Positions 1-32,089 of a DNA stretch of 64,000 bases are shown piece after piece. The notes under the pieces were generated by a model, which worked only from the letters and a program-made list of their open reading frames with translations, was not told the DNA's origin and searched no databases. The DNA lies in contig CAZKBQ010000018.1 of the NCBI GenBank assembly GCA_964550855.1, positions 3,841 through 67,840 of the forward strand, in the 5' to 3' direction. Position 1 is the stretch's first letter; each line of letters begins with the position of its first letter. The position numbers and the translations under genes are program-made. Origin of the DNA: an uncultured Anaerolineae bacterium (GTDB taxonomy: Bacteria; Chloroflexota; Anaerolineae; Fen-1058).

Positions 1-3000
1 CAGGGTCAGCGAACTGGAGCGCGGCGAATACAGCTGCGCGTACCATGCGCCCAGCGAGTAGCACTCAGCCGCGCGGTTGAGATACTGCTTGGCCTCCTCA
101 TCGTGAGCCACCAGATGCTGACGATGTTCACGCTGCTCGTCGCCCGGATGTTCCTCGCCGATTTCTTTGGTGCGCTTCATGAATTGTTCCAGCGCCAGAT
201 AGCCGCGCAGGCCGTACATCTTGCTGAGCTGAGCAAAGATCAGCAGATTGTCACGTTCCGCCGGCCTGGGGGCATAACCTTCGGGCAAATTGTCTTTATC
301 GATGGGGCGGATCAAATAGGGTCGTTTGGTTTCGATGCCATCCTGTTCGATTTCTTCTTCTATTTCCCTCAGGACTGTTTCAGCCTCTTGATATTTACCA
401 GCATAGAAGTGCGTCAGCCCGATGTTGACGCGCGCATCCATTTCCAGCCGTTTCAGTCTGAGTTGTTTGGCTTCATTGGCGGCTTCCGTCAGATAGTACA
501 AGGCGTCGCGGTAACGGGTCGGCCAGCGCGGCGAGCGACCTTCACCACTGGCCGCGCGAATGCGATCGCGGTGCAGGCAACCCAGCTCGATGCGGGCTTC
601 GATACGGCGGGCTGGCTCGTTCAGGTCGATGCGGCCCGGTTCGGGATGATCGGGGTTGAGGGGCAGGAACAAGCCGTGCGCCTCGGTGAGCAGTTCTTCG
701 GCCACGCTATAGAGCTGCTCGGCTTCGGTCACCGAGGCTTCCTGGTAACGGCTGCGATTGGCCAGGCGGCGCAGAGCTTCGCCCAGTTGGAGCAGTGCCA
801 GCCCCAACCCGCGCGGTTCTTCGGCACGGCGGAAGTAGGCCACGGCCAGCGCCGCTTCTTTCCAGGCATCTTCCGGTTCATTGCGGTCATTGAAGATCAG
901 CGCCAGGGTATTGTGACTGTAGGCAATGGCGACCTCTTCGCCCAGCTGCTTGCGGATCTCCAACCCGTCCCGGCAGACGCGCACCGCGCGCATGCGCCCC
1001 ATATCCGACAGCAACCGCGACTGGTTGTTCAGCACGTTGGCCCGGAACGCCAGCATGCCGACTTCGCGGATGTAGTACAAAGCCCGGCCATAGTAGTCGA
1101 GTGCCTTGCGGAATTGACCCAGATTAACGCAGCCGTATCCCATGGCGTTGTAAATAAAGGAAATAACGCGTCGCATCAGCCGATAAGCCGGGTGGTGTGA
1201 TGCGGTCCCCTGCATACCATTGCCTGGCACACCGCAAAAACCTTTTTCATCGACACCGACCTTTGATTCTGCAGCAGGAACGACTATCTCAGATTCCGTC
1301 TTGCGGGTAAATTCAACAAGGACATCTACCGTTTGTTTCAACTCGGACACCGCTTCTTCCACATTATCGGCCATTAAGATTCGTGCATAGCTACGCCAAC
1401 AAGTCCGCTGACCACGCGCAAATGTATGATTCCAACTCCTCCAATCTTTCTTGTCTTGTTGGTTACCGAATTGCAGTGATTCAGCGGCACGATCAATGTT
1501 GTCCGCGAAGTCGATGGCGCGTTGATAGTCTTTGCGGAAGACAAAGCGCATCACCCAGCGTACAGCGTCATCGTGTTGAACAGCCCGCCGCAGCACTTGC
1601 AATAATGTCTCGCCGCGGTCAAAGACCACCTGACGAGGTTTAAAGTCAACAAAACGCAGGGCATCTTCATCATGCAGCATGCGCCAGAGCTCGGCCTGGA
1701 TGAGAATTTCATAGTCCTCGTCTTCAGCCGCAATGAATCGTCGCCGTGAAGCTAGTTCAAAGAAATCTTCGTTAAAACCCTTCTCTGGATCGAGCAGTAA
1801 GCCATAATACATGGCTTCAAGATCGAGTTCTCGAATAGCCTCTTGAATCTTATTGCGGTGTTCTCGTTCCCGGTCGCCCAGCGGCGGAAATGTCAGGCGA
1901 CGCGCCTCTGTTGGTGCGAACAGTCTCAGGCTGCGCTCATCGCTTTCCTGGTATTCGCGGCGTTGCTGTTGCAGTTTATCTCGCTGGAAAATGGCCCACT
2001 TTTGCAGTTGCGTGTACAAGGTGCGGCGGGCGGCCTGCTCATCGCGGCGATTCTGCTCGTAACGCGCGCGGTCGGCCTCCAGCCGTTCTCGAATCCGAGC
2101 CAGGCGCGTGTTCGGTTCCGGGTCCGGATACAAGGGCGACATATGCTCGGCGAACAGGCGGTAAATGTCATCCTGCAAGCCGTGCCGCACGGCGCCCGGT
2201 TGGGGCTCTGTCGTGTCCGCTTCGTCAAAGCGCCACCACGTGGGCCGTGAACGGACCAAAAACAACCCGGCCATCTGCTGCAGCTGTTCATCGATCTGAT
2301 TGACGCGCTGCGGGTTGGCCTTCCACTCCTCGGGTGACAACCCTTTCAGGTTATCCAGCACAAAGTGCAACTGCGCAGCCGAGAGACCGCGCCGCGCCCG
2401 TACCAGCGCCAGCAAGATGCGATAGCGCAGATCGGCGACATTACGGGAATCGAACAACAGGTTGATGAAGTGCTCTTCAACTTGCCATTGCGCCCACTCC
2501 AGCGCCGGGGTGGTGTTTGCGGTCGAGTCTGTGCCAACTTCATTGACGACACGCTTCCACGACCACTGCAGCTGCTCGGGCACATGCCGACCCTCGGCCA
2601 CCAATTGGGCGTACAGCGCCAGACGAACGGGCACGCCGCCTGTGTATAACCACACGACCTTGGAGCGTTCTTCATTGTCGGCCAGATATTGAATATCCTT
2701 GGCCAGCCGCGCGGCTTCCGGCTGGGGGCGTTGCGCCAATTCGGCAGCCAGCACACGGAAGTATTCGCGTGTCTCATCGGCGGTGAATGGTTCGGCCCAC
2801 ACTTCCTTGACGACGGTCCCGACTGCGGCTTCGCCATAGGCGTCCTTGACCGCCGTCTTTAGCTCGTCAAAGAAGCGCCGTCCGCCCCGGCCGCGCCCGG
2901 CGCAGATCAAAGTCGTATTGGGCAACTTTTGCGCCGCGATCTGGCGTTTGAGCCATTCCAATGTGCGCGTCTGCATGTCATCCGGGGTCAGCACGCCTTT

Positions 3001-3561
3001 GTCAAGCAGCCACTCCGAGCTGAGGATCGCCAGTTGTTCAGTGGTGTCCAGCAGCCACACCAGTCGCCGCTCCCCGGCTGTCTTCTCGTAATCAGTCAGG
3101 AATGCGCGTTCGGCGCGTTCGGCGGCTTCGCGCACCAGCCGATATTCCATGCCTTGACCGAGCTGGCGCTGATAATTCTTATAGGCGTCTTCGAAGGCAG
3201 GGAAGTGCACCTCGGCGTGATAGCTCTCGCTAAGCGCGCGCACAAAGTGGCTCTGAGCGTGCAGGTGGATGTCGATCAAATCGATCGGCTCAGTAACCGC
3301 CACCGGCCGATCGGCCCGCCGCTGCCAACGACTCTGCGGGTCGCTCAGCAGCCGATGAATCTCCTCGATCAAGCGGGTCTTGCCGTAACCGCCTTCCGGC
3401 TCGCCGCGTTCGGCCGCTTCATGCGGGCCGCGGATGAAGACTAATCGAAAGTCCGTGCCGGCCGCAAAGATCGCCTCTTGAATCTGGGCCAGCTCCGGCT
3501 CACGTCCGATCAGCTGCGAGGTCTTGTGCGCGGCGATCAAACCGGTGATGGTCTCGTCCAT
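1..3561 (-). CDS. STAND-type P-loop NTPase with long helical linker and C-terminal TPR repeats (partial; 3' end beyond window start; absent from ORF track)
   Basis: Hand translation of the minus strand from ATG 3561 (GGAGGAG SD directly upstream) stays open to position 1, giving 1187 codons. N-terminus MDETITGLIAAHKTSQLIGREPELAQIQ. Walker A-like GEPEGGYGKTRL and Walker B RLVWLLDTTE. TPR-like helices near the end (NAMGYGCVNLGQFRKALDYYGRALYY, LALLQLGEALRRLA). The + ORF 103..1200 is its antisense shadow. Confidence 0.75.
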   Translation of the reverse strand, partial: MDETITGLIAAHKTSQLIGREPELAQIQEAIFAAGTDFRLVFIRGPHEAAERGEPEGGYGKTRLIEEIHRLLSDPQSRWQRRADRPVAVTEPIDLIDIHLHAQSHFVRALSESYHAEVHFPAFEDAYKNYQRQLGQGMEYRLVREAAERAERAFLTDYEKTAGERRLVWLLDTTEQLAILSSEWLLDKGVLTPDDMQTRTLEWLKRQIAAQKLPNTTLICAGRGRGGRRFFDELKTAVKDAYGEAAVGTVVKEVWAEPFTADETREYFRVLAAELAQRPQPEAARLAKDIQYLADNEERSKVVWLYTGGVPVRLALYAQLVAEGRHVPEQLQWSWKRVVNEVGTDSTANTTPALEWAQWQVEEHFINLLFDSRNVADLRYRILLALVRARRGLSAAQLHFVLDNLKGLSPEEWKANPQRVNQIDEQLQQMAGLFLVRSRPTWWRFDEADTTEPQPGAVRHGLQDDIYRLFAEHMSPLYPDPEPNTRLARIRERLEADRARYEQNRRDEQAARRTLYTQLQKWAIFQRDKLQQQRREYQESDERSLRLFAPTEARRLTFPPLGDREREHRNKIQEAIRELDLEAMYYGLLLDPEKGFNEDFFELASRRRFIAAEDEDYEILIQAELWRMLHDEDALRFVDFKPRQVVFDRGETLLQVLRRAVQHDDAVRWVMRFVFRKDYQRAIDFADNIDRAAESLQFGNQQDKKDWRSWNHTFARGQRTCWRSYARILMADNVEEAVSELKQTVDVLVEFTRKTESEIVVPAAESKVGVDEKGFCGVPGNGMQGTASHHPAYRLMRRVISFIYNAMGYGCVNLGQFRKALDYYGRALYYIREVGMLAFRANVLNNQSRLLSDMGRMRAVRVCRDGLEIRKQLGEEVAIAYSHNTLALIFNDRNEPEDAWKEAALAVAYFRRAEEPRGLGLALLQLGEALRRLANRSRYQEASVTEAEQLYSVAEELLTEAHGLFLPLNPDHPEPGRIDLNEPARRIEARIELGCLHRDRIRAASGEGRSPRWPTRYRDALYYLTEAANEAKQLRLKRLEMDARVNIGLTHFYAGKYQEAETVLREIEEEIEQDGIETKRPYLIRPIDKDNLPEGYAPRPAERDNLLIFAQLSKMYGLRGYLALEQFMKRTKEIGEEHPGDEQREHRQHLVAHDEEAKQYLNRAAECYSLGAWYAQLYSPRSSSLTL

Positions 3562-3572
3562 GATTCTCCTCC

Positions 3573-4664
3573 TCAGGGCAGCTGCGCCCAGGCTTTCGCC
3601 ATCTCGCGCAGCCCGGGAGTGATGTAGTAGCGAGCGGTCTTTTCACGGTGCGCCACGATGCCGCGCTCAAACAGGGCCTTCAGGCGCGGATCATCAATCG
3701 GGACGACGAGGCTTTGGAACAGATCGCGCTCAGTCCAATCTGAATCAAACTGGCTCGCGAGAGCGACCAGCAGCTGGAACTGCGCATCGGATAGCAGCGA
3801 CGTCAAACCGCCGGCGGCGACAGCGACAGTGACCGCCAACAGGCACTCTTTGACAATCTCTTTGGTGATAAGCGGCTGCACGCCCAGTTGATGGTGTTGA
3901 ACCGCGCGTTTCAGCAGATGGGTATTGAGGCCGGGGTGATTCCACTGATAAGGCCTCAGTTGATCGGTCAGTTTCAGATCGGTCAACAGCTGCGCGGTGA
4001 CGTCCGGCTGCTGTGGTGCGAGCACCGACCAGTTTTCCAGTCGTTTCTGCAGCTGCTGCTCTGGCTCGTCGCCTTTCAATTCCTCCAGCATCAGGCGACG
4101 CTCGTTCCAGGCCAGGTCGTTGGATTGCAAAGCGTATTCGTCGCGACGGAAGATCACCACGCGGGTGCAGCTGCGTCGCGCGAAGACGGCCAGCAGGCCC
4201 TCCTCGATTTCCAGCCGGAGCAGATCGTCAACTTCCTCAAAGCTATCGACGATCAAGAGCGGCGTCAGGTCGGCGCAGTCCCGGCATAGGTCCGCCGCCA
4301 GCGCATCCAGCATCGAGTCAACGGGCACCGTGGCATCGTAGGCGTGCACCTTTGCGCCGCACGGATGAGCGCAGGCGGCCGTGACGGCCTTCGCCACCCA
4401 CTGTTTTCGGCCCTCGCCATCAGCGACGTCCGGTTCATCGCCGCGAATTTCGGGGGTGCGCGTCAGATTGATCCAGAAGACCAGGCGGCCGAGTTGACGC
4501 GCGTGATCGCGGAAGCGGTGGGCGAGGTAGGACTTGCCCATCCCCGGCGGCCCCAGTACGGAGAGCACCCGTTGATCCGGTTCCGGGTCGTCAATCCATG
4601 CCTGAAGTTGATCAAGAATTGCCTGCCGGCCAACAAATAACTCGGGGATAAAGGGTTCAGGCAT
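3573..4664 (-). CDS. Compact STAND/NB-ARC-like P-loop NTPase (NBD + helical + winged-helix, no sensor repeats)
   Basis: ORF track 3573..4727. I prefer ATG 4664 (MPEPFIPELFVGRQAILDQL) because GGAGGAAG lies 5 nt upstream; 4727 is a TTG. Walker A GPPGMGKS, Walker B PLLIVDSFEE. The stop is 11 nt from the next gene start. Confidence 0.75.
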   Translation of the reverse strand: MPEPFIPELFVGRQAILDQLQAWIDDPEPDQRVLSVLGPPGMGKSYLAHRFRDHARQLGRLVFWINLTRTPEIRGDEPDVADGEGRKQWVAKAVTAACAHPCGAKVHAYDATVPVDSMLDALAADLCRDCADLTPLLIVDSFEEVDDLLRLEIEEGLLAVFARRSCTRVVIFRRDEYALQSNDLAWNERRLMLEELKGDEPEQQLQKRLENWSVLAPQQPDVTAQLLTDLKLTDQLRPYQWNHPGLNTHLLKRAVQHHQLGVQPLITKEIVKECLLAVTVAVAAGGLTSLLSDAQFQLLVALASQFDSDWTERDLFQSLVVPIDDPRLKALFERGIVAHREKTARYYITPGLREMAKAWAQLP

Positions 4665-4723
4665 TCGCTTCCTCCGGGGCGGCGCGGCTGCGCCACAAGA
4701 AATGAGCCGCGCGGCCCGGTCGC

Positions 4724-6076
4724 TCAAAGCGCTTCGAATCTCGGGGGCGGCGGCGGCTCGTGCGTCCAGTCCGTCCGCATGCGGCTCCAGTCGTCAAGCG
4801 AGATAAATCGATCGAGGGGATCGCGGAGCGCATGGGCGTCAATCAGCGCATGGATCAAATGCAGGTAACGTCGCGGTGAACCATTGGCAGCTTTGGCCAG
4901 CGCCTGGTCCAGACTATCTGGCAGGTCATCGGCGGCCAGATCGTCCCATCTTACTCGTCGGGAGCCGGCGGCGCGAAAACGGGCAGCCAGCAGACGTTGA
5001 AAGTCAGCCGATTGCCACTCACCCATTATGAAACTATTCGGATAATTAGTCAACCGGTTGGCTAACTCGAGCGGCAGAAAAAACTTAAACCAGACGCGGA
5101 GTTTCTCAAAGGCCGGCAGTTCGTCGAGTAGCGGCTGCAGCAGCGCCAGCATGAAATCCGGGGAGCGGCTGGTGTTCGCATCCACGCCATCCACCATTAC
5201 CAGACATCGCTCAAAGGCCCAAGTCTCCAAGGCCGCGAAACTGTCGCTCAAGGGGTCTTCGGCCACCGCTACTTCAGTCATTTTCCGGCGGGCCTGTCGA
5301 AGCAGCGTCAACAACGCCTCAGAAGCCACAACGCGCCTGATGACGGGCCGGCGCACCATCGACCAGTGCGCGCTCAATCCGTAAACCGACGCGGGCTCCG
5401 GTTGATCCAGCACGCGCTTTATAAGATTTTGAACGGGCAGGCCGCCGATGACAAGCTGCTTGGCCAGCGCCGTAATTTGATCGTTGTCGGGCGGTGGATC
5501 GAGGGGGTTGAAGCGCTCGATGATCTGCACCGTCAGATCGATCGCCATCGCCTGCGCCAGCCGCTGCCGATGCTCGGCTGGTGTCGGCGCCTGCCGGAAA
5601 TTTTCTTCCAACACGTATGAGGCGACCAGTACCCGCTCTGCACTGCGACGGCAGTCGGCTTCCAGCGCCAGCCGTAGCATGGTCTTGCCATCGCCGGGCC
5701 GGCCAAACACGAACGCCGTCTCGGGCTGACGCAGGACGGTGCGCGGCTCATCGACATCGATGGGCAAAAGGCCGGTCAAAGGGGGAGAAACAAAAAAATC
5801 GTAGAAGTAAGGTGGACGGGCGGCAGCCATTGCATCGGCTGCATTCATCTGCTCAGCTGATCGTCGTAATTCCAATTCGGCGACTGGCGTGTCAAACACG
5901 TCCAGCCATCTGAGACCAATGGTCTCGAGATAACGATCACGCGGCGGACGCTTGTCCGCCTCCCCGCCAAGCATATCAATATGGCCTCGACGCCGCGCCG
6001 AGCGAGGCTCGGGCGGCGGTGAATTTCGCCGGCCTGGGTTCGCATGAATGATGACAGGAAGATGGCGGAAAAACAC
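4724..6076 (-). CDS. AAA+-like P-loop NTPase, paralogue of the two genes upstream (start uncertain)
   Basis: ORF track 450 aa. Walker A FGRPGDGKT, Walker B CLVMVDGVD, lid/sensor-2-like ANGSPRRYLHLIHAL. No convincing SD at 6076 (GTG) or at the internal ATG 5974. Confidence 0.7.
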   Translation of the reverse strand: MFFRHLPVIIHANPGRRNSPPPEPRSARRRGHIDMLGGEADKRPPRDRYLETIGLRWLDVFDTPVAELELRRSAEQMNAADAMAAARPPYFYDFFVSPPLTGLLPIDVDEPRTVLRQPETAFVFGRPGDGKTMLRLALEADCRRSAERVLVASYVLEENFRQAPTPAEHRQRLAQAMAIDLTVQIIERFNPLDPPPDNDQITALAKQLVIGGLPVQNLIKRVLDQPEPASVYGLSAHWSMVRRPVIRRVVASEALLTLLRQARRKMTEVAVAEDPLSDSFAALETWAFERCLVMVDGVDANTSRSPDFMLALLQPLLDELPAFEKLRVWFKFFLPLELANRLTNYPNSFIMGEWQSADFQRLLAARFRAAGSRRVRWDDLAADDLPDSLDQALAKAANGSPRRYLHLIHALIDAHALRDPLDRFISLDDWSRMRTDWTHEPPPPPRFEAL

Positions 6077-6156
6077 CCAATCGGCGATGTAATTACAGCT
6101 TACTGATAGTCTCTGGCGGATTCAAGCGGGAGGCCTTCTGAAACCTGACATGAACC

Positions 6157-7506
6157 TTACACGTCGCTCTTGCCCGCTCGAACGACATTGTCCAGCCAGT
6201 AGCCGCCCTCGCCGCGATCGCTGATCAGGTAGATCGGGTGCGAAGGGTCTGGCTCAATGGCCTGTCGCAACCGCCGCGCCAGCGTGTGCAGCAGGCTCTT
6301 GGGGTTGGTGGCCCCACCCTGCACCGCTCGCCAGCCAGGTGAGTCGATATTGACCGGATCGTGACTATGCCATATCAGCTCCAGCAGTTTCAGTGGCTGC
6401 GGATCGATCGGGATGAAGCGCGGGCCGCGCCACACCCCGCGCTCGGTAATCAGCTCCAGCGGAAAATGCCGGGCGCACAGATCTCGCCACAGCCGATCGG
6501 CCGAGTCGGCTCCCAAGGGCCAGCTTGCGGGATCATCACCGCCGCAATGAAGCAAGGTCTCGGTCAGCCACACCCACCCTTGCGGCGAAACCTCGCCATA
6601 CTCCGCCGCCAGACGTTCGCCTAGCTCCTTCAGTGCGTCGGGCGTTATCAGTTGATCGAGCCGAATTGATTGATCATTCAAGGCTACGCGCAGGCACTTC
6701 TCGGCCATTTCCCACACCCGATCGAGCTTCCAATCCAATCGGGCGAAGTTAGCCCGGCCACGTGCGCGCGTGATGAGATCGACTTCTTCAGCAGCCTCGC
6801 GGGGCACAGCCGCCATCATGGCCAGGCCGGGCTGCTGCATCAGCTCCAGCCAACTGAACAGATCACCCAGAGCCGAAAGCCGCGTTTGCGCCTCGCGGCT
6901 ATTGACATCTACTGATAGAGCGATACGCTGAAACCCCAACCGTTTGATAAGGTTCACGGCTTCGTCAATCTGACCGACCACTTCAAGCGGTTGGGTGGTA
7001 CTGGCGTAGAGCTGCTCGTAAGTCACAGCCTGTAGCGAACGCGCGACTTCGTCGGGCAGGCCGTCGGCCCAGCGATCGAACGCGCGCCGTCCCAGGTAGT
7101 CATTCATCATCCAGCGCAGCACCGTGCGCTGGCCCACCGTCAACCTCGCGATTTCGGCCGGCGTGCTGCCCAGATAGTCGCGCAGGCGCAGCGCGATGGC
7201 GGCCATGATCTGCGCCAGATGATTGCCGTCTTTGACCAGTGCGTGCGACGCGCCCGGCCAGCGCGACGGCGGGTAGCGGACCACAAACGATCGGCCTTCG
7301 GCCAGTTCGTTCGCTTCCAGCGCGGCCAGCACGACTGATTTGCCGCTGCCCGGCCCACCCAGGATCACGCGCCAGTGCGACCAGCCGGCGGCCATGCGGG
7401 CAGCGGCAGGTTCGTGATAACACTGTTCCCACCAAAGCGCAGCTTCATCGGGCGGCAGCGCGCCGGGTGAGCGAAAGGGCCAGCTGGCGTAGGTGAGGTT
7501 AGGCAT
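6157..7506 (-). CDS. AAA+-like P-loop NTPase fused to a C-terminal OmpR/PhoB-type winged-helix DNA-binding domain
   Basis: Walker A LGGPGSGKS, Walker B RIALSVDVN. The C-terminal 85 aa resemble Trans_reg_C: RGVWRGPRFIPIDPQPLKLLELIW...LARRLRQAIEPDPSHPIYLISDRGEGGYWLD. Confidence 0.75.
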   Translation of the reverse strand: MPNLTYASWPFRSPGALPPDEAALWWEQCYHEPAAARMAAGWSHWRVILGGPGSGKSVVLAALEANELAEGRSFVVRYPPSRWPGASHALVKDGNHLAQIMAAIALRLRDYLGSTPAEIARLTVGQRTVLRWMMNDYLGRRAFDRWADGLPDEVARSLQAVTYEQLYASTTQPLEVVGQIDEAVNLIKRLGFQRIALSVDVNSREAQTRLSALGDLFSWLELMQQPGLAMMAAVPREAAEEVDLITRARGRANFARLDWKLDRVWEMAEKCLRVALNDQSIRLDQLITPDALKELGERLAAEYGEVSPQGWVWLTETLLHCGGDDPASWPLGADSADRLWRDLCARHFPLELITERGVWRGPRFIPIDPQPLKLLELIWHSHDPVNIDSPGWRAVQGGATNPKSLLHTLARRLRQAIEPDPSHPIYLISDRGEGGYWLDNVVRAGKSDV

Positions 7507-7525
7507 GGGTCAATCAAGCCGACGG

Positions 7526-9064
7526 CTACGATGAAGCAGTGGCGCACACTCTCTCGACGGACGCGGCGTCAAAGATGGCGTTATTGCCACAGATATGTTC
7601 AAGCATACGCCACCGCTCCATGAAGCGGCGCGGAGTGTTGTTGTTGACCGCTAACAAATGCTGGAAAGCCTCAGGCGGATCAAATCGGCTCTCAATCTGC
7701 GCGCGAGTGGGACCGAACGCGCTCTGGTAGCGATGATTGACCATCTCGCGCAAGTAGGCGGGCGTCCACTCCAGCGCCAGCGGCGAATAAGGTGTTTCCA
7801 GATTTTCAATGACCGTCTGCGGCGCGAAGAGCAAAGTGACAAGGCCGTTATCCCGCCAGCGCTCAAAACGGGCGAATAGCTCAGAGTTGAGTCGAGTCGG
7901 ATCAGTATCGGCGCTATCGATGACCAGTCGCACGCCTTCAAAGCCCAGCCGCCGCGCCAGCGCGCTCACCACGCGCGGCCAGTTGGTCCGTATGGCAGCT
8001 TTGGAATCAGCATCCACTATATACTGCACCAACTGGCGAATGAATGCCTGGCCTGGCTCACTGCCCGGCGCAGGATCAACCTGTGCATTTCTAAGATCGT
8101 CCAGCGCAGACTGTTTATCCAAGCCCGTACACAACAGCTCGGCCAAGAGCTTATAGTCAGCAGTGGTCAAGAGCATCAATCGAGCCGGCAGGTAACGAAT
8201 CACATCCATTAACCGGCCGGCATAGCCTTCCAGAAGCCGCGCGTCATCGGGCAGCCCGGCCGCATAGAATGCGAGTTGCAAGCCGGTCACATACTTGCCC
8301 AGCGCCAACCCCAGGGCGGTGCGGCCACTGCCTTCTTCGCCGTGGACCAACTGAAAAGTCTGTGCTTGACTCAAGGTGCCAAACAAAGGATGTCCCGACC
8401 AAAAAGCAGCTCGGCGGCCCAGGGTGCTTCGCCCGAACAAGGCCGCCAGTTCAGCGGGATTGGAGGCGTCGCCGTGTTTGAAAGGCGCAAAGCGGGATGG
8501 CACTTTTAGTTGATGGATCGGCCATTTTAGAGGCTGGTCGCTCACCCAGTCTCGCGTAATGCTCTCAACCTTGACGAGCAACGCTTCATCTTTGACTTGA
8601 TACAATCTCAGATGCTTGTAAGCTTCGCGCAGTTGGCGAGATGAACAAATCTGCGGCCGCTTATACACAAACACAAAAGCCGCGGCTGCTTCAGCCGCCC
8701 AGTCTTCAGGAATTTGATCGAACAACTCGGCCAGATCAGCCCCGGCATCGGCCGTGAGGACACGATATAGCGCCTCTGCGGATTCGACGTGCTGCCACAA
8801 TTGCGGAAATGCCGCATGTTGTGCTTTCAGGGCTTGAAGTGCCTCATGGGCGCCGGCGACATCGCCTTTGTGCACCGCCCGCTTGAATTCCTCCAGCGCC
8901 TGCTGGGCCTCAGGCGGCAGGGCATTTTCTGTCGGCAGGTTGTAGATCACCTTGTTTCCTGCCACCTTATCCCCGCCAAACTTATCTCCGCCGAACTTGT
9001 CGCCGCCGACCTGATCGCCGACGATGGAGGTATTGCCGCCGGAAGTGGGATGATCCTCAGCCAT
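7526..9064 (-). CDS. AAA+-like P-loop NTPase with N-terminal GGDKF repeat and Walker A Lys-to-Arg variant; first gene of the operon
   Basis: ORF track 512 aa. N-terminus SIVGDQVGGDKFGGDKFGGDKVAGNKV. Walker A HGEEGSGRTALG (nt 8318-8341 encode GEEGSGRT). Walker B VRLVIDSAD. Lid motif NNNTPRRFMERW. A 19-nt gap separates it from the next gene. Confidence 0.75.
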   Translation of the reverse strand: MAEDHPTSGGNTSIVGDQVGGDKFGGDKFGGDKVAGNKVIYNLPTENALPPEAQQALEEFKRAVHKGDVAGAHEALQALKAQHAAFPQLWQHVESAEALYRVLTADAGADLAELFDQIPEDWAAEAAAAFVFVYKRPQICSSRQLREAYKHLRLYQVKDEALLVKVESITRDWVSDQPLKWPIHQLKVPSRFAPFKHGDASNPAELAALFGRSTLGRRAAFWSGHPLFGTLSQAQTFQLVHGEEGSGRTALGLALGKYVTGLQLAFYAAGLPDDARLLEGYAGRLMDVIRYLPARLMLLTTADYKLLAELLCTGLDKQSALDDLRNAQVDPAPGSEPGQAFIRQLVQYIVDADSKAAIRTNWPRVVSALARRLGFEGVRLVIDSADTDPTRLNSELFARFERWRDNGLVTLLFAPQTVIENLETPYSPLALEWTPAYLREMVNHRYQSAFGPTRAQIESRFDPPEAFQHLLAVNNNTPRRFMERWRMLEHICGNNAIFDAASVERVCATASS

Positions 9065-9109
9065 GACGAGCTCGCTTCGCCGGGTCTAATGAATGACGCT
9101 GATGAACGG

Positions 9110-9161
9110 TTTGAGGCCCTCAAATCAATCTGATTTTAGACGGAAGCGGGGAGAAGAGCAA
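9110..9161 (-). promoter_or_regulatory. Candidate sigma70-type promoter plus perfect palindrome in the leader of the five-NTPase operon
   Basis: On the minus strand: TTGCTC (9161-9156), N17, TAAAAT (9138-9133). Downstream is the palindrome TTTGAGG-C-CCTCAAA (9110-9124), about 46 nt before ATG 9064. Motif match only. Confidence 0.3.
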
Positions 9162-9435: not shown

Positions 9436-10272
9436 TTGAAGACAATCAGGCAGCATCCCATGTGGTTCTTCTTCGGACTGGCTTATCTGCTGACGTGGAT
9501 TTTCTGGGGGACGCAGGTGGCCGAGGCGCAGGGTTGGATCAACTTTCACCTGCCGCAAAGTTTGGGCTATTGGGGACTGGCAACGGCAACGTATCTTGTG
9601 GCTTTTCTGACCGGCGGCTGGCCGGCCGTGAAGGATCTGTTGAGCCGCCTCGTGCGCTGGCGGGTGGGTGCGCAGTGGTATGTGATCGCGCTGGTATTTA
9701 CCAACATCATCGGGCTGGCCGCAGCCGCTCTGCTGGCGCTGACGGGTGGCCCCAGTCACATCGGCGAAGATTTGCCCGTCGGCCAGCTGCTGCCGTTCTT
9801 TCTGGCAAATTTCCCGCTGTTTCTGTTCACCGAGGAAACGGCCTGGCGCGGTTTCGCACTGCCGCGGCTGCAGCAGAAACACAGCGCGTTGCGGTCAAGC
9901 GTGCTGCTGGGCATCGGCTGGGGCATCTGGCATCTGCCGCTGTTCATGATTCCGGGCACTTTTCAGGCGCGCTTTCCATTCCCGGGAGCCATCGCCTCGT
10001 GGCTGGGCTTTGTCGTGTTGATCATCCCCGTGACGATCCTGGCAACGTGGCTGTTCAACCATACGCGCGGCAGCGTATTGATCGCGGCGCTGTTTCACAC
10101 CGCCACCAACGTGGGGCTGGTGTTCTGGGGCGTGTTGACGCACGAGCTGACGCTGTTTATCCTCTACGCCGTGTTGCTGTGGCTGACGGCCGCCGTCGTG
10201 GTCTGGTTGGAGAAACCTGAACGGTTGGCGCGCACGGCCGATTGGCGCGACGTGACGATCGAGACGACATGA
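9436..10272 (+). CDS. CPBP family intramembrane glutamic endopeptidase (CAAX protease/Abi-like)
   Basis: Multi-pass membrane protein with FTEETAWRGFALPRL (EExxxR) and later WGIWHLPLF and FHTATN motifs. The start is TTG 9436; an alternative ATG lies at 9460. Confidence 0.85.
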   Translation: MKTIRQHPMWFFFGLAYLLTWIFWGTQVAEAQGWINFHLPQSLGYWGLATATYLVAFLTGGWPAVKDLLSRLVRWRVGAQWYVIALVFTNIIGLAAAALLALTGGPSHIGEDLPVGQLLPFFLANFPLFLFTEETAWRGFALPRLQQKHSALRSSVLLGIGWGIWHLPLFMIPGTFQARFPFPGAIASWLGFVVLIIPVTILATWLFNHTRGSVLIAALFHTATNVGLVFWGVLTHELTLFILYAVLLWLTAAVVVWLEKPERLARTADWRDVTIETT

Positions 10273-10898
10273 CCAAACACTCCACGGCTGTGCCGGCCGC
10301 GCCGGGCGATGGCGATGATCACATCGGGCTGGAGCGCCTGATCTTCTTCAGCGACGCGGTCTTTGCCATCGCCATTACGCTGCTGGCGCTGGACATCCGC
10401 CTGCCGGCACCCGCCGCGGCATTGACCGACGATCAGCTGGCGGCGGAGCTGCTGGGCCTGGGCTCCAAATACCTGGCCTACGTGATCAGCTTCCTCGTCA
10501 TCGGCACGTTCTGGTTCGGCCATCACCGGCGGTTTCGCTACATCCGCCATTACGATCGCCGTCTGGTGTGGCTCAATCTGTTGCTGCTGATGTGCATCGC
10601 CTTCATTCCGTTTCCGACGGGCGTGCTCAGCGAATACGGCAATCGCACGGCCACTGTTTTCTATGCGGTCACCATCGCCGTGACCGGACTATTGTCCGGC
10701 GCGCTCTGGTGGTACGCCGCGTGGCACGATCGCCTGATCGATCCCACCCTTCATCCGCGCCACCGCCGCTACGAACAACTGGCGCCGCTGATCATTCCCG
10801 TGATCTTTCTGGGTTCGATTGGCCTGGCCTTCATCAACGCGCAGCTGGCGATGTATTCATGGTGCCTCACTCTGGTGGCCGCCTGGCTGATCCGGTGA
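10269..10898 (+). CDS. TMEM175/DUF1211 family membrane protein (putative K+ channel)
   Basis: Signature LERLIFFSDAVFAIAITLLALDI. ATG 10269 overlaps the CPBP stop (ATGA). The ORF track gives a longer alternative from 10242. Confidence 0.8.
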   Translation: MTKHSTAVPAAPGDGDDHIGLERLIFFSDAVFAIAITLLALDIRLPAPAAALTDDQLAAELLGLGSKYLAYVISFLVIGTFWFGHHRRFRYIRHYDRRLVWLNLLLLMCIAFIPFPTGVLSEYGNRTATVFYAVTIAVTGLLSGALWWYAAWHDRLIDPTLHPRHRRYEQLAPLIIPVIFLGSIGLAFINAQLAMYSWCLTLVAAWLIR

Positions 10899-10977: not shown

Positions 10978-11802
10978 GTGATCATGTCAACCGTCACCTG
11001 GTTGGGCGGCCCGACATTCTTGCTGGAGATCGGCTCGTTCAAATGGCTGGCCGATCCGATGTTTGGTGAAGGCCCGGCGGCCTTCATCATGCACGATCAT
11101 CCTTCGACGGGCGCGGCAGTGGCCGAGATCGCCCGCCTCGCCCCGCTGCCGCCGGTCGATCTGCGCGGCCTCGACGGCGTGATCGTCAGTCATCTGCACA
11201 GCGATCATTTCGATCAGGTCGCAGCCGATCGTCTCGACAAATCACTCACGGTCATCGCTGCGCCCGAGCATGCCGCCCTGCTCAACGCGCGCGGTTTTCA
11301 TCACGTGCAGCCGCTCCGCTGGTGGCACATCTGGTCGTCGCGGAAAAACGCTGAAACGCTAACCTTCACCGCCGTGCCCGCGCGCCATGCCCACGCCGAT
11401 GCCTTGAACGCCGAACTCGGCCTCGTCAACGGCTATCTGATCGAGCACCAAACGGCGCACGGCAAATTGCGGATATACTGGACGGGCGACACGGTCTGGT
11501 TCGACGATCTGGCCGACATCCGGGCGCAAGCCGGGCGCGTCGATGTGCTGATCCCGCATCTGGGCGCGGTGGGTGTGGATGGGCCGTACGGCCTGATGAC
11601 GCTGGACGCCGGGGAAGCGGCGCGCGTCGTCGATCTGTTCGAGCCGGCGGCCATCGTGCCGATTCATCATCACACTTTTTCGCACTACGTCGAACCGATC
11701 GCGGTCTTGCAGGCGCGGCTGCGCGGCACGCCGCACGAACATCGGCTGCACGTCTTGCAAGAAGGCGAAATGCTGCATTTTGAACCGCCGCATTTGCGAT
11801 GA
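10978..11802 (+). CDS. MBL-fold metallo-hydrolase
   Basis: VSHLHSDHFD (HxHxDH) motif and beta-lactamase-fold-like length. The stop overlaps the next start (ATGA at 11799). Confidence 0.85.
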   Translation: MIMSTVTWLGGPTFLLEIGSFKWLADPMFGEGPAAFIMHDHPSTGAAVAEIARLAPLPPVDLRGLDGVIVSHLHSDHFDQVAADRLDKSLTVIAAPEHAALLNARGFHHVQPLRWWHIWSSRKNAETLTFTAVPARHAHADALNAELGLVNGYLIEHQTAHGKLRIYWTGDTVWFDDLADIRAQAGRVDVLIPHLGAVGVDGPYGLMTLDAGEAARVVDLFEPAAIVPIHHHTFSHYVEPIAVLQARLRGTPHEHRLHVLQEGEMLHFEPPHLR

Positions 11803-13859
11803 GTCAACCCTCGTCTCTTCAGCCTGTGCCCTTCGAGCGCCTCGCCATCCGTCTGCGGCCCGAGCTGCGCGCCGCCTCGGGCGAGGCGCTTCAGCGGGCC
11901 GTCAATGACGTGTTCGGCGTGGTGTACGCTGCGCCGCTCGCGCTGATCGGCCTGCTCTGGACGATCGCCGCCACCGACACCGCCGTGCTCGCGCGCGAGT
12001 GGCCGCGATTGCTGCTGGCGTGGGGGCTGCTGTGGGCGTTTGAACGCCTGCCGTTTTTCGTCGTCATTGAAGTCCGGCCCGGTTCGCAATCCGATTTTTC
12101 CGGTTCGCTCGACACCGTGGTCTTCTGGACGGCGTGTCTGATCTTCGGCCCCACCGCGATCTGGATCGGTGTGATCCCGATCGCGGTATATTTTGTCACA
12201 GGCTGGCGCGCTGCGACCACGGCCGATCAACGCTGGAACCGCGCCCGCAACACGTTGATCGATCTGAGCGGCACGACGCTGGCGGCGTTGATCGCGCTGG
12301 GCGTGTACGAACGATCGGGCGGCCGCTATCCGATCGATAGTTTCGCGCCCGGCGTGTTTGTCCCGGCCCTCATCGTCACGCTCGTCCATATCGTGCTCGA
12401 CCGCAGCGTGTGGCTGCCCTATCTGCTGGTAACGTACGAGCGCGGCACCCTGCAGCAGCAGGCGCTGGCGCGGCGCTTCCTGCTGCTCTCGCTGGGCCTG
12501 CCCAGCCTGGCGCAGCCATTTGCCATCATCGCGGCCGGCCTGTGGGTTGAACACGGCGCGGGCTTGTTCCTCTTTTTTATCGGCGGCCTGCTGATCGTCA
12601 GCTGGCTGACCTACCAGTTGAGTCAGGCCGTCAGCCGCAGCTGGCTGCGCTCGCGCGAACTGGAACGGCTGGAATTGCTGAGCCAGGCGCTGTTGAACGC
12701 GCCGCCCGATGCCTCGACGCTGCCCGACATCCTGCGCGAACATCTGCCCGCGCTGTTCTCGCCCAACGCCATTTCGATCGTCCTGTTTCCCGATCGCGTC
12801 CTGCTGCACCATCCGGCCGATCAACCACCGGTGGAGGCCGAGGTGTGGGCGTGGCTCCGCGCGCAGCCGCGCGTGCAGCAATTTTCCGCCAAGAGCGTAT
12901 CCCCGTGGCGCCGCGAGCCGATCGACAACAGCGTGATCCTTGCGCCGATCCTTGGCGCGGCCGAGCCGCATGCCCTGATCGGCGGGATCCATCTTGCGCA
13001 CCAGAGTTTCATCCGCGACACCCGGGCCGCCACCGCCTCGTGGTCGGCCGTGCAGGCCGTGGCCGATCAGATCGCGTCCGCGCTGCACCAGGCCGAGTTG
13101 AACGCGCGCATGCTGGCCAACCAGCGGATCGATCAGGAGTTATCCTTAGCCGCCAAGATTCAGGCCAGTTTTCTGCCGCTGGCGCTGACCGATGCGCCCG
13201 GCTGGCAGCTGGCCGCCACGCTGGAACCGGCGCGGCAGACTTCGGGCGACTATTACGATTGGGGCATGTTGTCCAACGGCCGGCTGGCCGTGGCCGTGGC
13301 TGACGTGGCCGACAAGGGCGTGGGCGCGGCGCTATACATGGCGCTGACGCGCACCATCCTGCGGACATTCGTGTTTGAATATCCCGATCAACCGGCCGAA
13401 GCATTTGGGGCCGCCAATCGCCGCATTTTTGCGGATGCGCGCACCGATCTGTTTGTGACCACGTTCTACGGCTTGATCGATCCGGCCAGCGGCGAAATGG
13501 TGTACTGCAATGCCGGGCACAATCCGCCCTACGTGCTGCGGCGCGCCGGCGGCGAACCGATCCCGTTGATGCGCACCGGCCGGCCGATGGGCATGTTTGA
13601 AGACAGCCGCTGGACCACGCACACGATCGCACTCGAACCGGGCGATCGTGTGATCCTCTACACCGACGGCGTGACCGAGGCCCAAAACGCGCACGGCGAA
13701 TTCTTCGGCGAGGCGCGTTTGCTGGCGGTGGCGCGCCGGTCCATGACCTGTTCCGTGGAGGAGATGCAGCGCGCCATCCTGGCCGACGTTCACGCCTTTG
13801 TGGGCAATGCGCCGCAGGCCGACGATATTACGCTCTTGGTGTTGGGCCGCGATGAATAG
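11799..13859 (+). CDS. Membrane-anchored PP2C/SpoIIE-family protein phosphatase
   Basis: The N-terminal ~280 aa are multi-pass hydrophobic. The C-terminus shows a SpoIIE-like pattern: AAKIQASFLP, GDYYDW, VADVADKGVGAALYMA, YCNAGHNPP, LYTDGVTEA, DDITLLVL. Confidence 0.85.
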   Translation: MSQPSSLQPVPFERLAIRLRPELRAASGEALQRAVNDVFGVVYAAPLALIGLLWTIAATDTAVLAREWPRLLLAWGLLWAFERLPFFVVIEVRPGSQSDFSGSLDTVVFWTACLIFGPTAIWIGVIPIAVYFVTGWRAATTADQRWNRARNTLIDLSGTTLAALIALGVYERSGGRYPIDSFAPGVFVPALIVTLVHIVLDRSVWLPYLLVTYERGTLQQQALARRFLLLSLGLPSLAQPFAIIAAGLWVEHGAGLFLFFIGGLLIVSWLTYQLSQAVSRSWLRSRELERLELLSQALLNAPPDASTLPDILREHLPALFSPNAISIVLFPDRVLLHHPADQPPVEAEVWAWLRAQPRVQQFSAKSVSPWRREPIDNSVILAPILGAAEPHALIGGIHLAHQSFIRDTRAATASWSAVQAVADQIASALHQAELNARMLANQRIDQELSLAAKIQASFLPLALTDAPGWQLAATLEPARQTSGDYYDWGMLSNGRLAVAVADVADKGVGAALYMALTRTILRTFVFEYPDQPAEAFGAANRRIFADARTDLFVTTFYGLIDPASGEMVYCNAGHNPPYVLRRAGGEPIPLMRTGRPMGMFEDSRWTTHTIALEPGDRVILYTDGVTEAQNAHGEFFGEARLLAVARRSMTCSVEEMQRAILADVHAFVGNAPQADDITLLVLGRDE

Positions 13860-19069: not shown

Positions 19070-19179
19070 TGCGGCAGCCAGGACAGCGCACCGCTGTCAT
19101 CCTCGTCCCTCATCAAACCGTTCTAAACGAGCAATTGTGATACGTCGCCAGCCGCTTGAAGGCCGACGGAAAGGACGTC

Positions 19180-24834: not shown

Positions 24835-25527
24835 TCATTCCCCGCCGCGCAGCCGATAACCGACGCCCGGCTCGGTGACGATGTACCGTGGCCGGGCCGG
24901 GTCAACTTCGATCTTGCGGCGCAAGTTGCTGATGTTCACGCGCAGCATGTGCAGCTCGTCGTCATAGCCCGGCCCCCACGCCTGCCGCAGCAGTTGATGA
25001 TGCGTCAACACCTTGCCCGCATTGACGACGAACAACCGCAGCAGATCGTACTCCGTCGGGGTCAGCTGCACCTCCTGGCCGGCCACGCTCACCAGCCGCC
25101 GCGCCAGATCGACGACCAGATCGCCCATCACAAACACCGGCTCATCGGCCGGGCGCGCCGCGTGCCGGACCGCCGTCCGAATGCGCGCCAGCAGTTCGCC
25201 CACGCCAAACGGCTTGGTCAAATAATCATCGGCGCCGGCATCAAGAGCCGCAATCTTGTCGGTCTCATGCTCGCGCACCGACAGCACAATAACGGGCACC
25301 GTCGTCCACTCCCGCAGCCGCCGCGTCACCTCAACGCCGTCGATATCGGGCAGACCCAGATCAAGAATGATCAGATCGGGCCGATTGGCGATCACGGCAT
25401 CCAGCGCGGCCTGGCCGTTTGCCGCCTCGAAGATGAGATAGTGATGGGCCGACAACGCCGCGCGCAAGAAACGGCGGATCGGCGCTTCGTCGTCGACGAT
25501 CAGGACGCGCAGCTCGCCTTCACTCAT
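24835..25527 (-). CDS. kdpE: KDP operon response regulator KdpE (OmpR family)
   Basis: ATG 25527 (MSEGELRVLIVDDEAPIRRFL) overlaps the kdpD stop by 8 nt. Motifs DLIILDLGLPD and C-terminal wHTH LRRKIEVDPARPRYIVTEPGVGYRL. The longer ORF-track start 25779 lies inside kdpD. Confidence 0.9.
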   Translation of the reverse strand: MSEGELRVLIVDDEAPIRRFLRAALSAHHYLIFEAANGQAALDAVIANRPDLIILDLGLPDIDGVEVTRRLREWTTVPVIVLSVREHETDKIAALDAGADDYLTKPFGVGELLARIRTAVRHAARPADEPVFVMGDLVVDLARRLVSVAGQEVQLTPTEYDLLRLFVVNAGKVLTHHQLLRQAWGPGYDDELHMLRVNISNLRRKIEVDPARPRYIVTEPGVGYRLRGGE

Positions 25528-28222: not shown

Positions 28223-28321
28223 TCGAAACAGGTTTGATTGAGCCGCTGGACGCGACCCGGCTGATGATCAACCTGGCTGTGTGGTGTGAATGCCTGCCCC
28301 CGTGGTTATTCTAGCATTTAT

Positions 28322-29116: not shown

Positions 29117-29216
29117 TCACGTGATCGATCGGCGCGCCCGGCTGATGGGGGCAGTTGGCTGCCCGCCTAAAGCGCGCGGGCTTGACGCGATCAATTCGCA
29201 GCCTAAAGCACAGCGG

Positions 29217-29795: not shown

Positions 29796-29852
29796 GTAAG
29801 CCTTTCCTTAAAAAGGCTGAACTTTTCATACTTCAGTCTTCAGCCTTGATCG

Positions 29853-31931: not shown

Positions 31932-32023
31932 GATGTTTCCCCTAATTCCTGGACGGTCATGCCCGAATGCTATTGTCGGGCATCCAGTCTGGCGATTGGC
32001 AGATCACGTTGATCGCGTTCTGG

Positions 32024-32048
32024 ATTCCCGCCAGAAGCACGCGGGAAT
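32024..32048. repeat. REP-like palindrome inside the unusually long kdpA-kdpB spacer
   Basis: ATTCCCGC-cagaagcac-GCGGGAAT (8-bp arms) within TGGATTCCCGCCAGAAGCACGCGGGAATGACG. This resembles the widespread GGGAATGAC / RGND-type intergenic palindromes. Confidence 0.55.
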
Positions 32049-32089
32049 GACGTTGCCCTGCGATATCGTAACTCAACCTGGATACCACT

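Follow-up and report, generated by a model that had tools for sequence, protein, structure and literature searches.

In the NTP-dependent conflict systems of multicellular bacteria, EAD domains serve as adaptors through which effectors are brought in (Kaur et al. 2020, PMC7159879), and DS-41 ('AAA2') is a validated single-gene anti-phage AAA ATPase of E. coli (DefensePredictor, PMC13092281). Here we describe a cassette of genes for P-loop NTPases and a radical S-adenosylmethionine (SAM)/SPASM enzyme, part of which lies in a 64,000-nt stretch of DNA from an uncultured Anaerolineae bacterium (contig CAZKBQ010000018.1), referred to below as the window. Positions 1-9064 of the window contain five co-directional minus-strand P-loop NTPase genes, numbered 1 to 5 in the order of transcription, and comparison with related loci, found mainly in Chloroflexota (Anaerolineae and relatives), reveals a full cassette of an optional gene 1, gene 2, a repeat array and spacer, genes 3, 4, and 5, and the radical SAM/SPASM gene. 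The five-NTPase arrangement had been flagged as undescribed in an original prediction made from the letters of the window, and indeed no family or description corresponding to the cassette was found in the curated libraries compared, namely Pfam, NCBIfam (June 2026), and PADLOC, or in the literature searched.

Among the parts of the cassette are an OmpR-type winged helix-turn-helix (wHTH) domain, a P-loop NTPase switch, and a predicted tetratricopeptide repeat (TPR) sensor, as in AfsR and the other large SARP regulators (SARP-LAL) and in MalT. The likeness to AfsR/SARP extends to direct repeats with 11-bp spacing beside the target promoter and to the TPR profile of gene 5, which matches the TPR of AfsR. 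However, the parts of the cassette are on separate polypeptides and are accompanied by three extra NTPases; the SARP wHTH lies N-terminal to BTAD and NB-ARC domains, whereas that of gene 2 lies C-terminal to an initiator-like AAA+ domain; and the repeats of the cassette are well upstream of any candidate -10 element, while in SARP sites the last repeat is about 8 bp from the -10. No Pfam match to BTAD was obtained for any of the five proteins, which places them outside the SARP/AfsR family, and genes 1-5 gave no match to GerE or TPR_MalT, which places them outside the MalT/LAL family. Thus, the proposal that the locus is a SARP/MalT-like regulator split over five polypeptides holds for its parts, the wHTH of gene 2 and the TPR of gene 5, but fails on the lack of BTAD and the C-terminal position of the wHTH.

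The peptide-processing modules of the VMAP/FtsH ternary conflict systems (Kaur et al. 2020, PMC7159879) and the FxSxx-COOH (Fxs) systems, with the FxsB and FxsT families of Haft, resemble the cassette in the genomic coupling of a radical SAM/SPASM protein to an AP-ATPase/STAND protein with C-terminal TPR, in their occurrence in multicellular or filamentous bacteria, and in the presence of EAD domains in some members. Unlike these systems, the cassette is without vWA, MoxR, FtsH, a HEXXH metallopeptidase, and an FxSxx precursor, and instead has three Sll1717/DS-41-like AAA+ paralogues and a wHTH, with an enzyme that scores 51.8 bits against the FxsB cut-off of 370. The vWA-MoxR (VMAP/FtsH) core genes are part of no cassette examined; one 3.5-Mb genome (L015; related loci are given by number) has such a system, composed of CHAT-iSTAND, MoxR-like AAA, and vWA proteins, as a separate neighbour 3 kb from the cassette (L015:14447-21485).

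Genes 1-3 are remote homologues of DS-41 and of the Sll1717 family rather than members of either. Against NCBIfam NF053860 (DS41_1; cut-off 370 bits), gene 3 scores 51.4 bits (E = 8.6e-14, positions 36-361 of the 448-position model), gene 2 scores 25.3, and gene 1 scores 14.1, and against NF047389 (Sll1717-family P-loop ATPase; cut-off 75 bits) gene 3 scores 27.5 and gene 1 scores 12. DS-41 acts alone, whereas in the cassette the three paralogues have diverged, the sites of two have decayed, and all belong to a larger assembly of genes. With the Avs (AVAST) and NLR-like STAND proteins the cassette shares the NB-ARC-like fold of gene 4, consisting of a nucleotide-binding domain (NBD), a helical domain, and a winged-helix domain, and the large TPR-bearing, probably STAND-type protein of gene 5; unlike Avs, its STAND proteins have neither a fused N-terminal effector nor a PADLOC match, and the enzymatic partner is a separate protein.

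The enzyme itself, with a CX3CX2C motif and a seven-Cys SPASM domain, resembles the ranthipeptide (PapB), SCIFF, nif11-type, and QhpD maturases. PapB substrates contain C-x3-D/E-like motifs that are similar to Cys motifs at the N-terminus of the cassette enzyme. Unlike the known maturases, the cassette enzyme carries such motifs, in one to three copies, on its own N-terminus, and it scores below all of their cut-offs. Finally, as a works-like analogy only, the cassette may be likened to heteromeric AAA+ assemblies with degenerate sites, such as ORC/Cdc6 and the RFC clamp loader, in that it encodes several AAA+ paralogues together, with complementary losses of Walker A, Walker B, and sensor-2 residues, one subunit with a winged-helix DNA-binding domain, and a fold nearest to the TnsC/ORC/Cdc6/RFC group; the structural similarity is low (TM-score ~0.37), and neither a ring nor DNA loading is in evidence for the cassette.

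The cassette and its radical SAM/SPASM enzyme

Relatives of the window were retrieved via gene 3 (L003, L004-6, L007, L008, L009, L010, L011, and L014), and the closest relatives are L099/L100, with 97% nucleotide identity over genes 3-5 and 88-91% over genes 1-2, and L003, with 89% nucleotide identity. The order of genes 1 to 5 is kept in all of these loci, and in the relatives retrieved via gene 3 a radical SAM/SPASM gene of about 490 aa directly follows gene 5 wherever the contig continues. In L099/L100 and L003 the full-length gene 5 product is 1255-1256 aa and its gene overlaps that of the enzyme (L099:10001-11473; L003:16171-17643) by 8 nt, placing the edge of the window about 70 codons short of the gene 5 stop; such overlaps are the usual arrangement, and across L003, L015, L016, and L099 the overlap between gene 5 stop and enzyme start is 4-8 nt. 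A synteny survey that instead started from the enzyme yielded 347 relatives in a metagenome scan, of which 80 loci were analysed. In 43 of the metagenomic loci the sequence extends 4 kb or more upstream of the enzyme gene, and 39 of these contain gene 5, listed next to the enzyme. Where at least 9.5 kb was available upstream (28 loci), 12 loci contained genes 1-5, five contained genes 2-5, nine contained partial sets, and two contained none that was detectable. The original prediction had seen no effector domain in the five proteins, and Pfam, PADLOC, and NCBIfam likewise reveal none of the nuclease, protease, TIR, SIR2, kinase, and pore types; its suggestion that the effector lies outside the window is supported by the closest relatives. 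We are highly confident of the cassette and of its link to the enzyme, and the radical SAM/SPASM enzyme, predicted to be encoded just left of window position 1, is probably the missing effector.

The number of NTPase genes is not invariably five, as gene 1 is missing in some clades (L015, L016/17) and gene 4 is duplicated in others, with the additional copy between genes 1 and 2 (L008, L021, L055). A shorter form consists of genes 1, 4, and 5 and the enzyme (L031, L034, L038, L067), and the genes remain clustered even when inverted, with the radical SAM gene followed by genes 5, 4, 3, and 2 on the opposite strand (L076, L078, L092). A distant cousin (L012/13; L012:9571-20748) encodes a wHTH-AAA+ protein (Trans_reg_C), a KAP NTPase, Meth_synt_2, AAA_16, and TPR proteins, and a radical SAM/SPASM enzyme, which hints at a broader group of radical SAM cassettes rich in NTPases. 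Among syntenic relatives the NTPases are 22-41% identical versus 52-65% for the enzyme, and thus diverge much faster. A protein database search with the enzyme as query gave more than 2000 matches, and the source names shown among the best 120, at 55-93% identity, are all Chloroflexota (Anaerolineae, Anaerolineales, Ardenticatenaceae, Promineifilaceae, Villigracilaceae); the nearest homologues that bear a name also point to an Anaerolineae-like member of this phylum as the probable source of the window. An apparent rarity of the gene 3 family (31 matches in a word-based homologue search) proved to be a sensitivity artefact, since many more members emerged from the scans based on the enzyme and from an exhaustive profile search, which gave 170 representative clusters at E ≤ 1e-30; a pattern scan of genome contigs returned just two loci, owing to its narrow peptide pattern.

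The motifs of the enzyme were surveyed in 116 full-length sequences, all from outside the window. In the relatives the protein has a Pfam Radical_SAM domain and a full seven-Cys SPASM domain, and the motifs NACNLDCPYC (CX3CX2C), C-x13-G-x4-C, and CxxCx5Cx3C...C are at least 90% conserved. Its best NCBIfam matches are peptide maturases, namely nif11-type (E = 5.5e-37), QhpD, PapB (E = 1.3e-31), and SCIFF, with the anaerobic sulfatase maturase also matched; the scores are below every maturase cut-off (340-519 bits), for example 127.6 versus 518.7 for rSAM_nif11 and 110 versus 340 for PapB. Its N-terminus contains one to three copies of the motif [DE]-D-C-A-C-P-D-x-x-F, often reading C-x3-D/E; two CxC motifs are present in 94 of the 116 sequences, and some sequences have single-Cys DCAPSD versions. 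As the copy number of this motif varies, a fixed metal site is disfavoured, while a repeated modification site is compatible with the pattern, and the N-terminal Cys repeats may represent a fused substrate or pseudo-substrate tail. No RiPP (peptide made by ribosomes and then post-translationally modified) recognition element was recognisable in the enzyme.

BLAST comparison across the early loci identified no conserved flanking genes beyond the six, and it was in the larger set of metagenomic loci that genes for membrane coiled-coil, Band_7, and SWIM-like proteins were seen to recur after the enzyme. At a distance of about 200 nt 3' of the enzyme gene, a protein of 200-330 aa with an N-terminal transmembrane (TM) segment, a coiled coil, and a C-terminal TM segment forms two BLAST clusters (of eight and six loci) and is also encoded in L003 (18490-19218), L004 (13558-14169), and L010 (17469-18143). 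A Band_7/SPFH protein follows the enzyme in five loci and was also seen in L007 and L016/17, and a SWIM-like protein follows it in five loci. Either the TM-coiled coil-TM protein or the Band_7/SPFH protein is a candidate seventh component of the cassette. The L003 copy of the former has a weak holin-like Pfam match (E = 0.0055).

Three AAA+ paralogues, a STAND protein, and a probable second one

Profile-profile comparison using hhalign revealed that genes 1, 2, and 3 are paralogous over about 250 columns (probability 97-99%), with genes 4 and 5 separate; the N-terminal extensions of the three are unrelated, so that both halves of the earlier claim about this trio hold. All three belong to the AAA+ superfamily, genes 1 and 2 as paralogues with decayed motifs, and the full set of catalytic motifs is found in gene 3 only. 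Every Walker A and Walker B string quoted in the original prediction is present in the translations.

The Walker A Lys that is nearly always kept in genes 2-5 is replaced in 18 of 23 gene 1 orthologues; across all 23 the position is occupied by Arg (14), Leu (2), His (1), Gln (1), or Lys (5). The Lys-to-Arg change first noticed in the window is therefore family-wide and no one-off. In addition, the second acidic residue of Walker B is unconserved in gene 1, and the PRR motif of sensor-2 is kept. Gene 1 would be an optional, adaptor-like subunit, catalytically dead and acting as a sensor or adaptor. Its N-terminal module varies, with a GGDK(F/V) repeat in the window (aa 15-40) and L003 and a two-TM module followed by an ectodomain of about 150 aa in L004, L008, L010, and L011, while the L007 protein bears an added C-terminal EAD7 domain (48.9 bits versus a cut-off of 32). 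On the idea that the GGDK repeat might pair with a partner as amyloid motifs do, the window was searched for a second copy, and the repeat was found in gene 1 alone.

Gene 2 has an intact Walker A motif (GKS/T), a Walker B reduced to a lone Asp, and no sensor-2 Arg (SPxGW). Its wHTH was detected by single-sequence Pfam analysis in one of eight members (E = 0.0094) and emerged through a profile search of the PDB, in which the gene 2 orthologue profile matched the DNA-binding domain of VicR (2hwv; E = 1.8e-6) as well as those of YycF, WalR, RegX3, and RpaA. At the equivalent position, a distant gene 2 homologue (protein representative P0031) matches Pfam Trans_reg_C (E = 5.7e-14), and the recognition-helix region, LHTLARRLRQAIEPDP, is highly conserved and nearly invariant. 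Together with the 11-bp repeat array that adjoins the gene, these matches uphold the earlier assignment of an OmpR-type wHTH to gene 2.

In gene 3 the motifs GxxGxGKT, hhhhDGVD, FRAAGSRR, and GSPRR are complete and invariant in an alignment of 23 sequences. Its start is the ATG at 5974, on which the genes called in identical contigs agree with an alignment of 23 homologues; the protein is consequently shorter than the 450 aa first given, and the gap between genes 2 and 3 is wider than the ~80 nt first given (Table 1). The remainder of the five-gene layout is as originally described, with all open reading frames (ORFs) present and gaps of 19, 59, and 11 nt at the other junctions. An AlphaFold2 model of gene 3 (predicted local distance difference test (pLDDT) score 86.7) gave Foldseek matches exclusively to AAA+ proteins (TnsC, ORC/Cdc6, RFC, p97) at a TM-score of ~0.37, which is consistent with an AAA+ fold that has no close solved relative and is too generic for assignment to a clade. 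Inspection of the best 150 gene 3 representatives from the profile search identified 13 natural fusions of genes 3 and 4, each about 780 aa (P0180, P0194, P0231, P0236, and nine others), and a further one is encoded at L043:4320-6563. By Rosetta-stone logic, these fusions connect the active AAA+ protein with the small STAND protein. One gene 3 homologue (P0022; 36% identity) is annotated as coming from a short contig of a metagenome-assembled genome of a Candidatus Methanomethyliaceae archaeon.

Gene 4 matches Pfam AAA_16 with 33.4 bits against a gathering score of 32.6 and falls just below threshold for nSTAND1 (24.7), NPHP3_N (22.6), and NACHT (20.8), and its homologues carry all three of these domains. 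A FVGRQAIL motif corresponds to the hhGRxxE motif ahead of the P-loop, as in other STAND proteins. The top Foldseek match of its AlphaFold2 model (pLDDT 86.2) is Cdc6, followed by CED-4, the NB-ARC domain of NRC1, RPP1, Roq1, Apaf-1, and ZAR1 (E = 1e-8 to 1e-6, TM-score 0.42-0.54), and these NB-ARC-type matches agree with the description of gene 4 as an NBD-helical-winged-helix module. In L015 and L016/17, whose cassettes are without gene 1, gene 4 carries a C-terminal EAD7 domain.

Gene 5 contains the motifs LIGREPEL, GGYGKT, and LLDTTE, in the hhGRExE, P-loop, and Walker B layout of AAA_16-type STAND proteins; a long helical stretch comes next, with TPR repeats at about aa 780-1190. Domain scans of five orthologues identified TPR_12 in four (best E = 3.3e-11), AAA_16 in three (best E = 6e-6), and NACHT in one, and the gene 5 profile matched the TPR of kinesin light chain in the PDB (E = 4e-6) in addition to that of AfsR, confirming the TPR repeats that had been read from the sequence. 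The hhalign probability between genes 5 and 4 is 30%, and gene 5 is likely to be a STAND-type NTPase, judging from its motifs and domains.

The repeat array between genes 2 and 3

Two direct repeats, TGTAAGGTTCA and TGTCAGGTTTC, lie at 6161-6140 of the window, with the TAA stop codon of gene 2 forming part of the first unit. In about 26 loci, an array of two to four direct repeats of the approximate form TG(T/A)(C/A)AGGTTNN, spaced by exactly 11 bp, is found at or just after the gene 2 stop, frequently with one more copy, likewise in phase, at the place of unit 4 or 5. The two copies are the sole occurrences of TGTMAGGTT in the 64-kb window (0.23 expected), the 21-nt repeat pattern is likewise unique in the window, with 0 expected by chance, and each locus contains a single match to a degenerate two-unit pattern, in every case after gene 2. 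In 15 of 22 metagenomic loci the best repeat pair agrees at 10 or more of 12 positions (P = 0.0098 per random 275-nt window). More divergent systems (L072, L080, L091) have TGTGAG repeats with the same spacing, which suggests that the site has co-evolved with the protein.

Phased 11-bp direct repeats are classic targets of the winged helices of the OmpR/PhoB and SARP families. As the adjacent gene encodes an OmpR-type wHTH with a nearly invariant recognition-helix region, gene 2 probably binds the repeats at 6140-6161. The spacer between genes 2 and 3 is about 140-420 nt in the loci examined and is unconserved apart from the repeat array. A GC-rich hairpin just 5' of the gene 3 start is conserved in L003, a different hairpin occupies the same place in L009, and some compensatory pairs are found among close relatives; this hairpin may be a translational or leader element. 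A simple scan of the window revealed no terminator after gene 2. The spacer probably holds an internal activator-dependent promoter and a 5' leader for genes 3, 4, and 5 and the radical SAM gene.

Table 1. Features of the cassette and of its surroundings in the window.
Feature	Position	Strand	Size	Description
Gene 1	7526..9064	-	512 aa	Degenerate AAA+ paralogue, variable N-terminal module
Gene 1 Walker A GEEGSGRT	8318..8341	-		Arg where Lys is otherwise invariant
Gene 2	6157..7506	-	449 aa	AAA+ ATPase with C-terminal OmpR/PhoB-type winged helix
Gene 2 winged-helix DNA-binding domain	6187..6459	-		About aa 350-440
Two 11-bp direct repeats	6140..6161	-		Predicted binding site of the gene 2 wHTH
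Gene 2-gene 3 spacer	5975..6156	-	182 nt
GC-rich hairpin	5985..6030	-		Putative translational or leader element
Gene 3	4724..5974	-	416 aa	Canonical AAA+ ATPase among the three paralogues
Gene 4	3573..4664	-	363 aa	Minimal NB-ARC-like STAND NTPase: NBD, helical domain, winged helix
Gene 5	1..3561, cut by window edge	-	First 1187 of ~1256 aa	AAA_16-type, probably STAND NTPase with TPR
Candidate gene 1 promoter	9133..9161	-		TTGCTC, 17 nt, TAAAAT; kept in L003; below threshold of the scan tool
Palindrome	9108..9126			In gene 1 5' leader, after the candidate promoter
CPBP/Rce1-like intramembrane protease gene	9460..10272	+		Divergent from gene 1; kept only in L001, L003, and L099
TMEM175 gene	10269..10898			After the CPBP gene
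Metallo-beta-lactamase-fold gene	10978..11802			After the CPBP gene
SpoIIE phosphatase gene	11799..13859			After the CPBP gene
MalT-like STAND regulator gene	14009..16720	+		Separate and complete: AAA_16, TPR_MalT, LuxR/GerE HTH
Histidine kinase gene	19156..22827	+		Large, PAS/GAF
kdp potassium-transport genes	25520..33832	-		KdpD sensor kinase, KdpB P-type ATPase, KdpA
Bacterial alpha-2-macroglobulin gene	36510..41450	-	1646 aa	MG, bait-region, TED, and receptor-binding domains
RHS/teneurin-like YD-shell protein gene	44339..50218	-	1959 aa	NHL repeats; likely polymorphic toxin
Adenylate/guanylate cyclase gene	57284..60076	+		Fused to NB-ARC/AAA_22 and TPR; another STAND signalling protein

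STAND, TPR, and sensor-kinase genes are numerous across the window, the G+C content of which is about 52-67% in 1-kb windows, and Rfam and tRNA scans of the whole window found nothing. An ORF at 9093-10220 that had appeared to be the neighbour of gene 1 is in the wrong frame and has no Pfam match; the real gene at this place is that of the CPBP protease.

A two-tier model and its alternatives

With moderate confidence, we propose that the NTPases of the cassette form a switch with two tiers that controls an enzyme crosslinking a peptide or protein, and that the whole probably serves in conflict or signalling. In the first tier, gene 2 would bind the in-phase TGTCAG-type repeats that start at its own stop codon as part of a nucleotide-dependent hetero-oligomer with its paralogues, in which gene 1 would be a dead subunit and gene 3 the active ATPase, and occupancy of the repeats would turn on an internal promoter for genes 3, 4, and 5 and the enzyme. 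In the second tier, gene 3 would act with the small STAND protein of gene 4, the large, probably STAND-type TPR protein of gene 5 would be translationally coupled to the enzyme, and the three would gate it. The enzyme would then crosslink Cys motifs (D-C-A-C or C-x3-D) in a peptide or protein, perhaps in its own N-terminal tail, and the modified peptide or protein so produced would probably act at the membrane as a toxin or signal, with EAD7-coupled partners recruited in some lineages.

Among the possible roles of such a switch, one in conflict or cell fate is favoured by the fusions to EAD7, the homology to DS-41, the rapid evolution of the NTPases, and the variability of the sensor modules, and a conflict function is in our view plausible, albeit tentative. 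The EAD7 domains on gene 1 of L007 and on gene 4 of L015 and L016/17 would, in an EAD pairing, be matched by a second copy on an effector, and a second EAD7 protein is encoded near the L015 cassette. The system neighbouring L015 includes a 1846-aa NPHP3_N-EAD7-ParA protein, a possible EAD7 partner of the L015 gene 4-EAD7 protein. The most specific version of the model, in which the AAA+ trio on the phased repeats licenses the STAND pair and the pair frees an enzyme acting on its own D-C-A-C tail or on a protein partner instead of a separate RiPP precursor, as a new kind of NTP-gated immune or cell-fate system in which a self-crosslinked or cleaved-off peptide would act at the membrane via the coiled-coil or Band_7 protein, is unlikely to be correct.

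Several observations weigh against the two-tier model or its conflict role. The enzyme gene itself is outside the window and was read from relatives, and the case for binding of gene 2 to the repeats consists of adjacency and conservation. A simple scan found no consensus sigma-70 promoter in the spacer between genes 2 and 3, a result that is compatible with an activator-dependent promoter and decides nothing either way. No conserved small ORF that could encode a separate precursor peptide was found between gene 5 and the enzyme or after the enzyme. PADLOC gave nothing significant for the five proteins (best 0.0015, to mad8), and Pfam detected no EAD domain in genes 1-5 of the window itself. 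In viral contigs the enzyme family was not represented, the one match being an unrelated radical SAM protein at 24% identity, and on plasmids the radical SAM matches to the enzyme were just 28% identical and gene 3 had no match. Strong conservation of the enzyme and its wide occurrence within one phylum would suit a role in physiology or development as readily as one in conflict. Finally, of the two questions that the original prediction posed for a check of genomic neighbourhoods, the first is answered in that the gene order does recur in relatives, but the cassette lies mostly among housekeeping genes that differ by locus (pheT, ribF, F420 genes, homoserine dehydrogenase) and not in defence islands; toxin-antitoxin or insertion sequence elements are near two loci.

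As the neighbourhoods are housekeeping, the distribution is restricted to one phylum, and the enzyme is conserved, a RiPP-cluster or physiological role has to be kept in view. In an ordinary RiPP cluster, the enzyme would mature a peptide that is secreted, for instance as an antibiotic or quorum signal, and the NTPases would be split regulators of the SARP/LAL kind with no role in immunity or cell death. We regard this as unlikely, though a serious contender: the best matches of the enzyme are RiPP maturases, the combination of OmpR-type wHTH, NTPase, and AfsR-like TPR is that of the SARP-LAL regulators, 11-bp direct repeats are typical of SARP and OmpR sites, the cassette is absent from phages and plasmids, and a gene for a CPBP protease, of a type that processes bacteriocins, lies divergently to gene 1 both in the window and in the relatives nearest to it. 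However, the CPBP neighbour is unconserved beyond those relatives, the enzyme has beside it no conserved gene for a precursor peptide, a transporter, or immunity, BTAD is missing, four to six NTPases per tailoring enzyme would be unprecedented among pathway regulators, and the EAD7 adaptor fusions and DS-41 homology indicate conflict-type systems. The same lack of a precursor gene fits protein maturation or assembly, in which the enzyme would modify a cellular protein in the manner of anSME or QhpD, the AAA+ and STAND proteins would be chaperone-like factors, and the product would be associated with the membrane coiled-coil or Band_7 protein. QhpD and the anaerobic sulfatase maturase are among the enzyme matches, the enzyme is 52-65% conserved across the phylum, and a membrane coiled-coil/Band_7 gene recurs downstream. 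Yet STAND-TPR and wHTH-AAA+ architectures are those of switches and regulators and not of known chaperones, the conserved cis-repeats point to transcriptional control, no candidate substrate enzyme is conserved nearby, and the EAD7 fusions are left unexplained, which together make this explanation improbable.

We give still less weight to a defence system of the Avs/NLR-like kind, with the NTPases as both sensors and effectors, acting for example through ATP depletion or oligomer toxicity, and the radical SAM gene as an unrelated passenger. The NB-ARC-like fold of gene 4, the TPR sensor of gene 5, and the remote DS-41 homology would suit it, but the PADLOC Avs models are unmatched and the supposed passenger exceeds all other genes of the cassette in conservation and in tightness of linkage, with a start that overlaps gene 5 and a place in the cluster that is kept even when the arrangement is inverted, making this explanation very improbable. 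The presence of other STAND/TPR proteins in the window (14009-16720 and 57284-60076) could be taken to indicate that unrelated P-loop genes had come to lie side by side by chance, the alternative raised alongside the original prediction. This is refuted by synteny, as the same order is kept in dozens of independent contigs at 22-41% protein identity, and by the gene fusions, the overlapping stop and start codons, and the cis-element, and its probability is negligible.

If the two-tier model is true, the cassette would be a phylum-wide uncharacterised module that joins NLR-type AAA+/STAND switches, SARP-like activation from phased repeats, and radical SAM/SPASM crosslinking, and would provide a testable case of several NTPase checkpoints stacked before one enzymatic output, in which the AAA+ paralogues split their labour between a dead, a DNA-binding, and an active subunit. 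The predicted gene 2 site, the fusions of genes 3 and 4, and the pattern of motif decay offer handles for experiment. The enzyme represents a radical SAM family whose N-terminus itself bears a conserved Cys motif of variable copy number and for which a precursor gene is not seen, and such radical SAM/SPASM genes may be filed by genome-mining tools as ordinary RiPP clusters, for example as ranthipeptides. The NTPase context described here suggests that some of these RiPP calls may hide regulatory or conflict systems.

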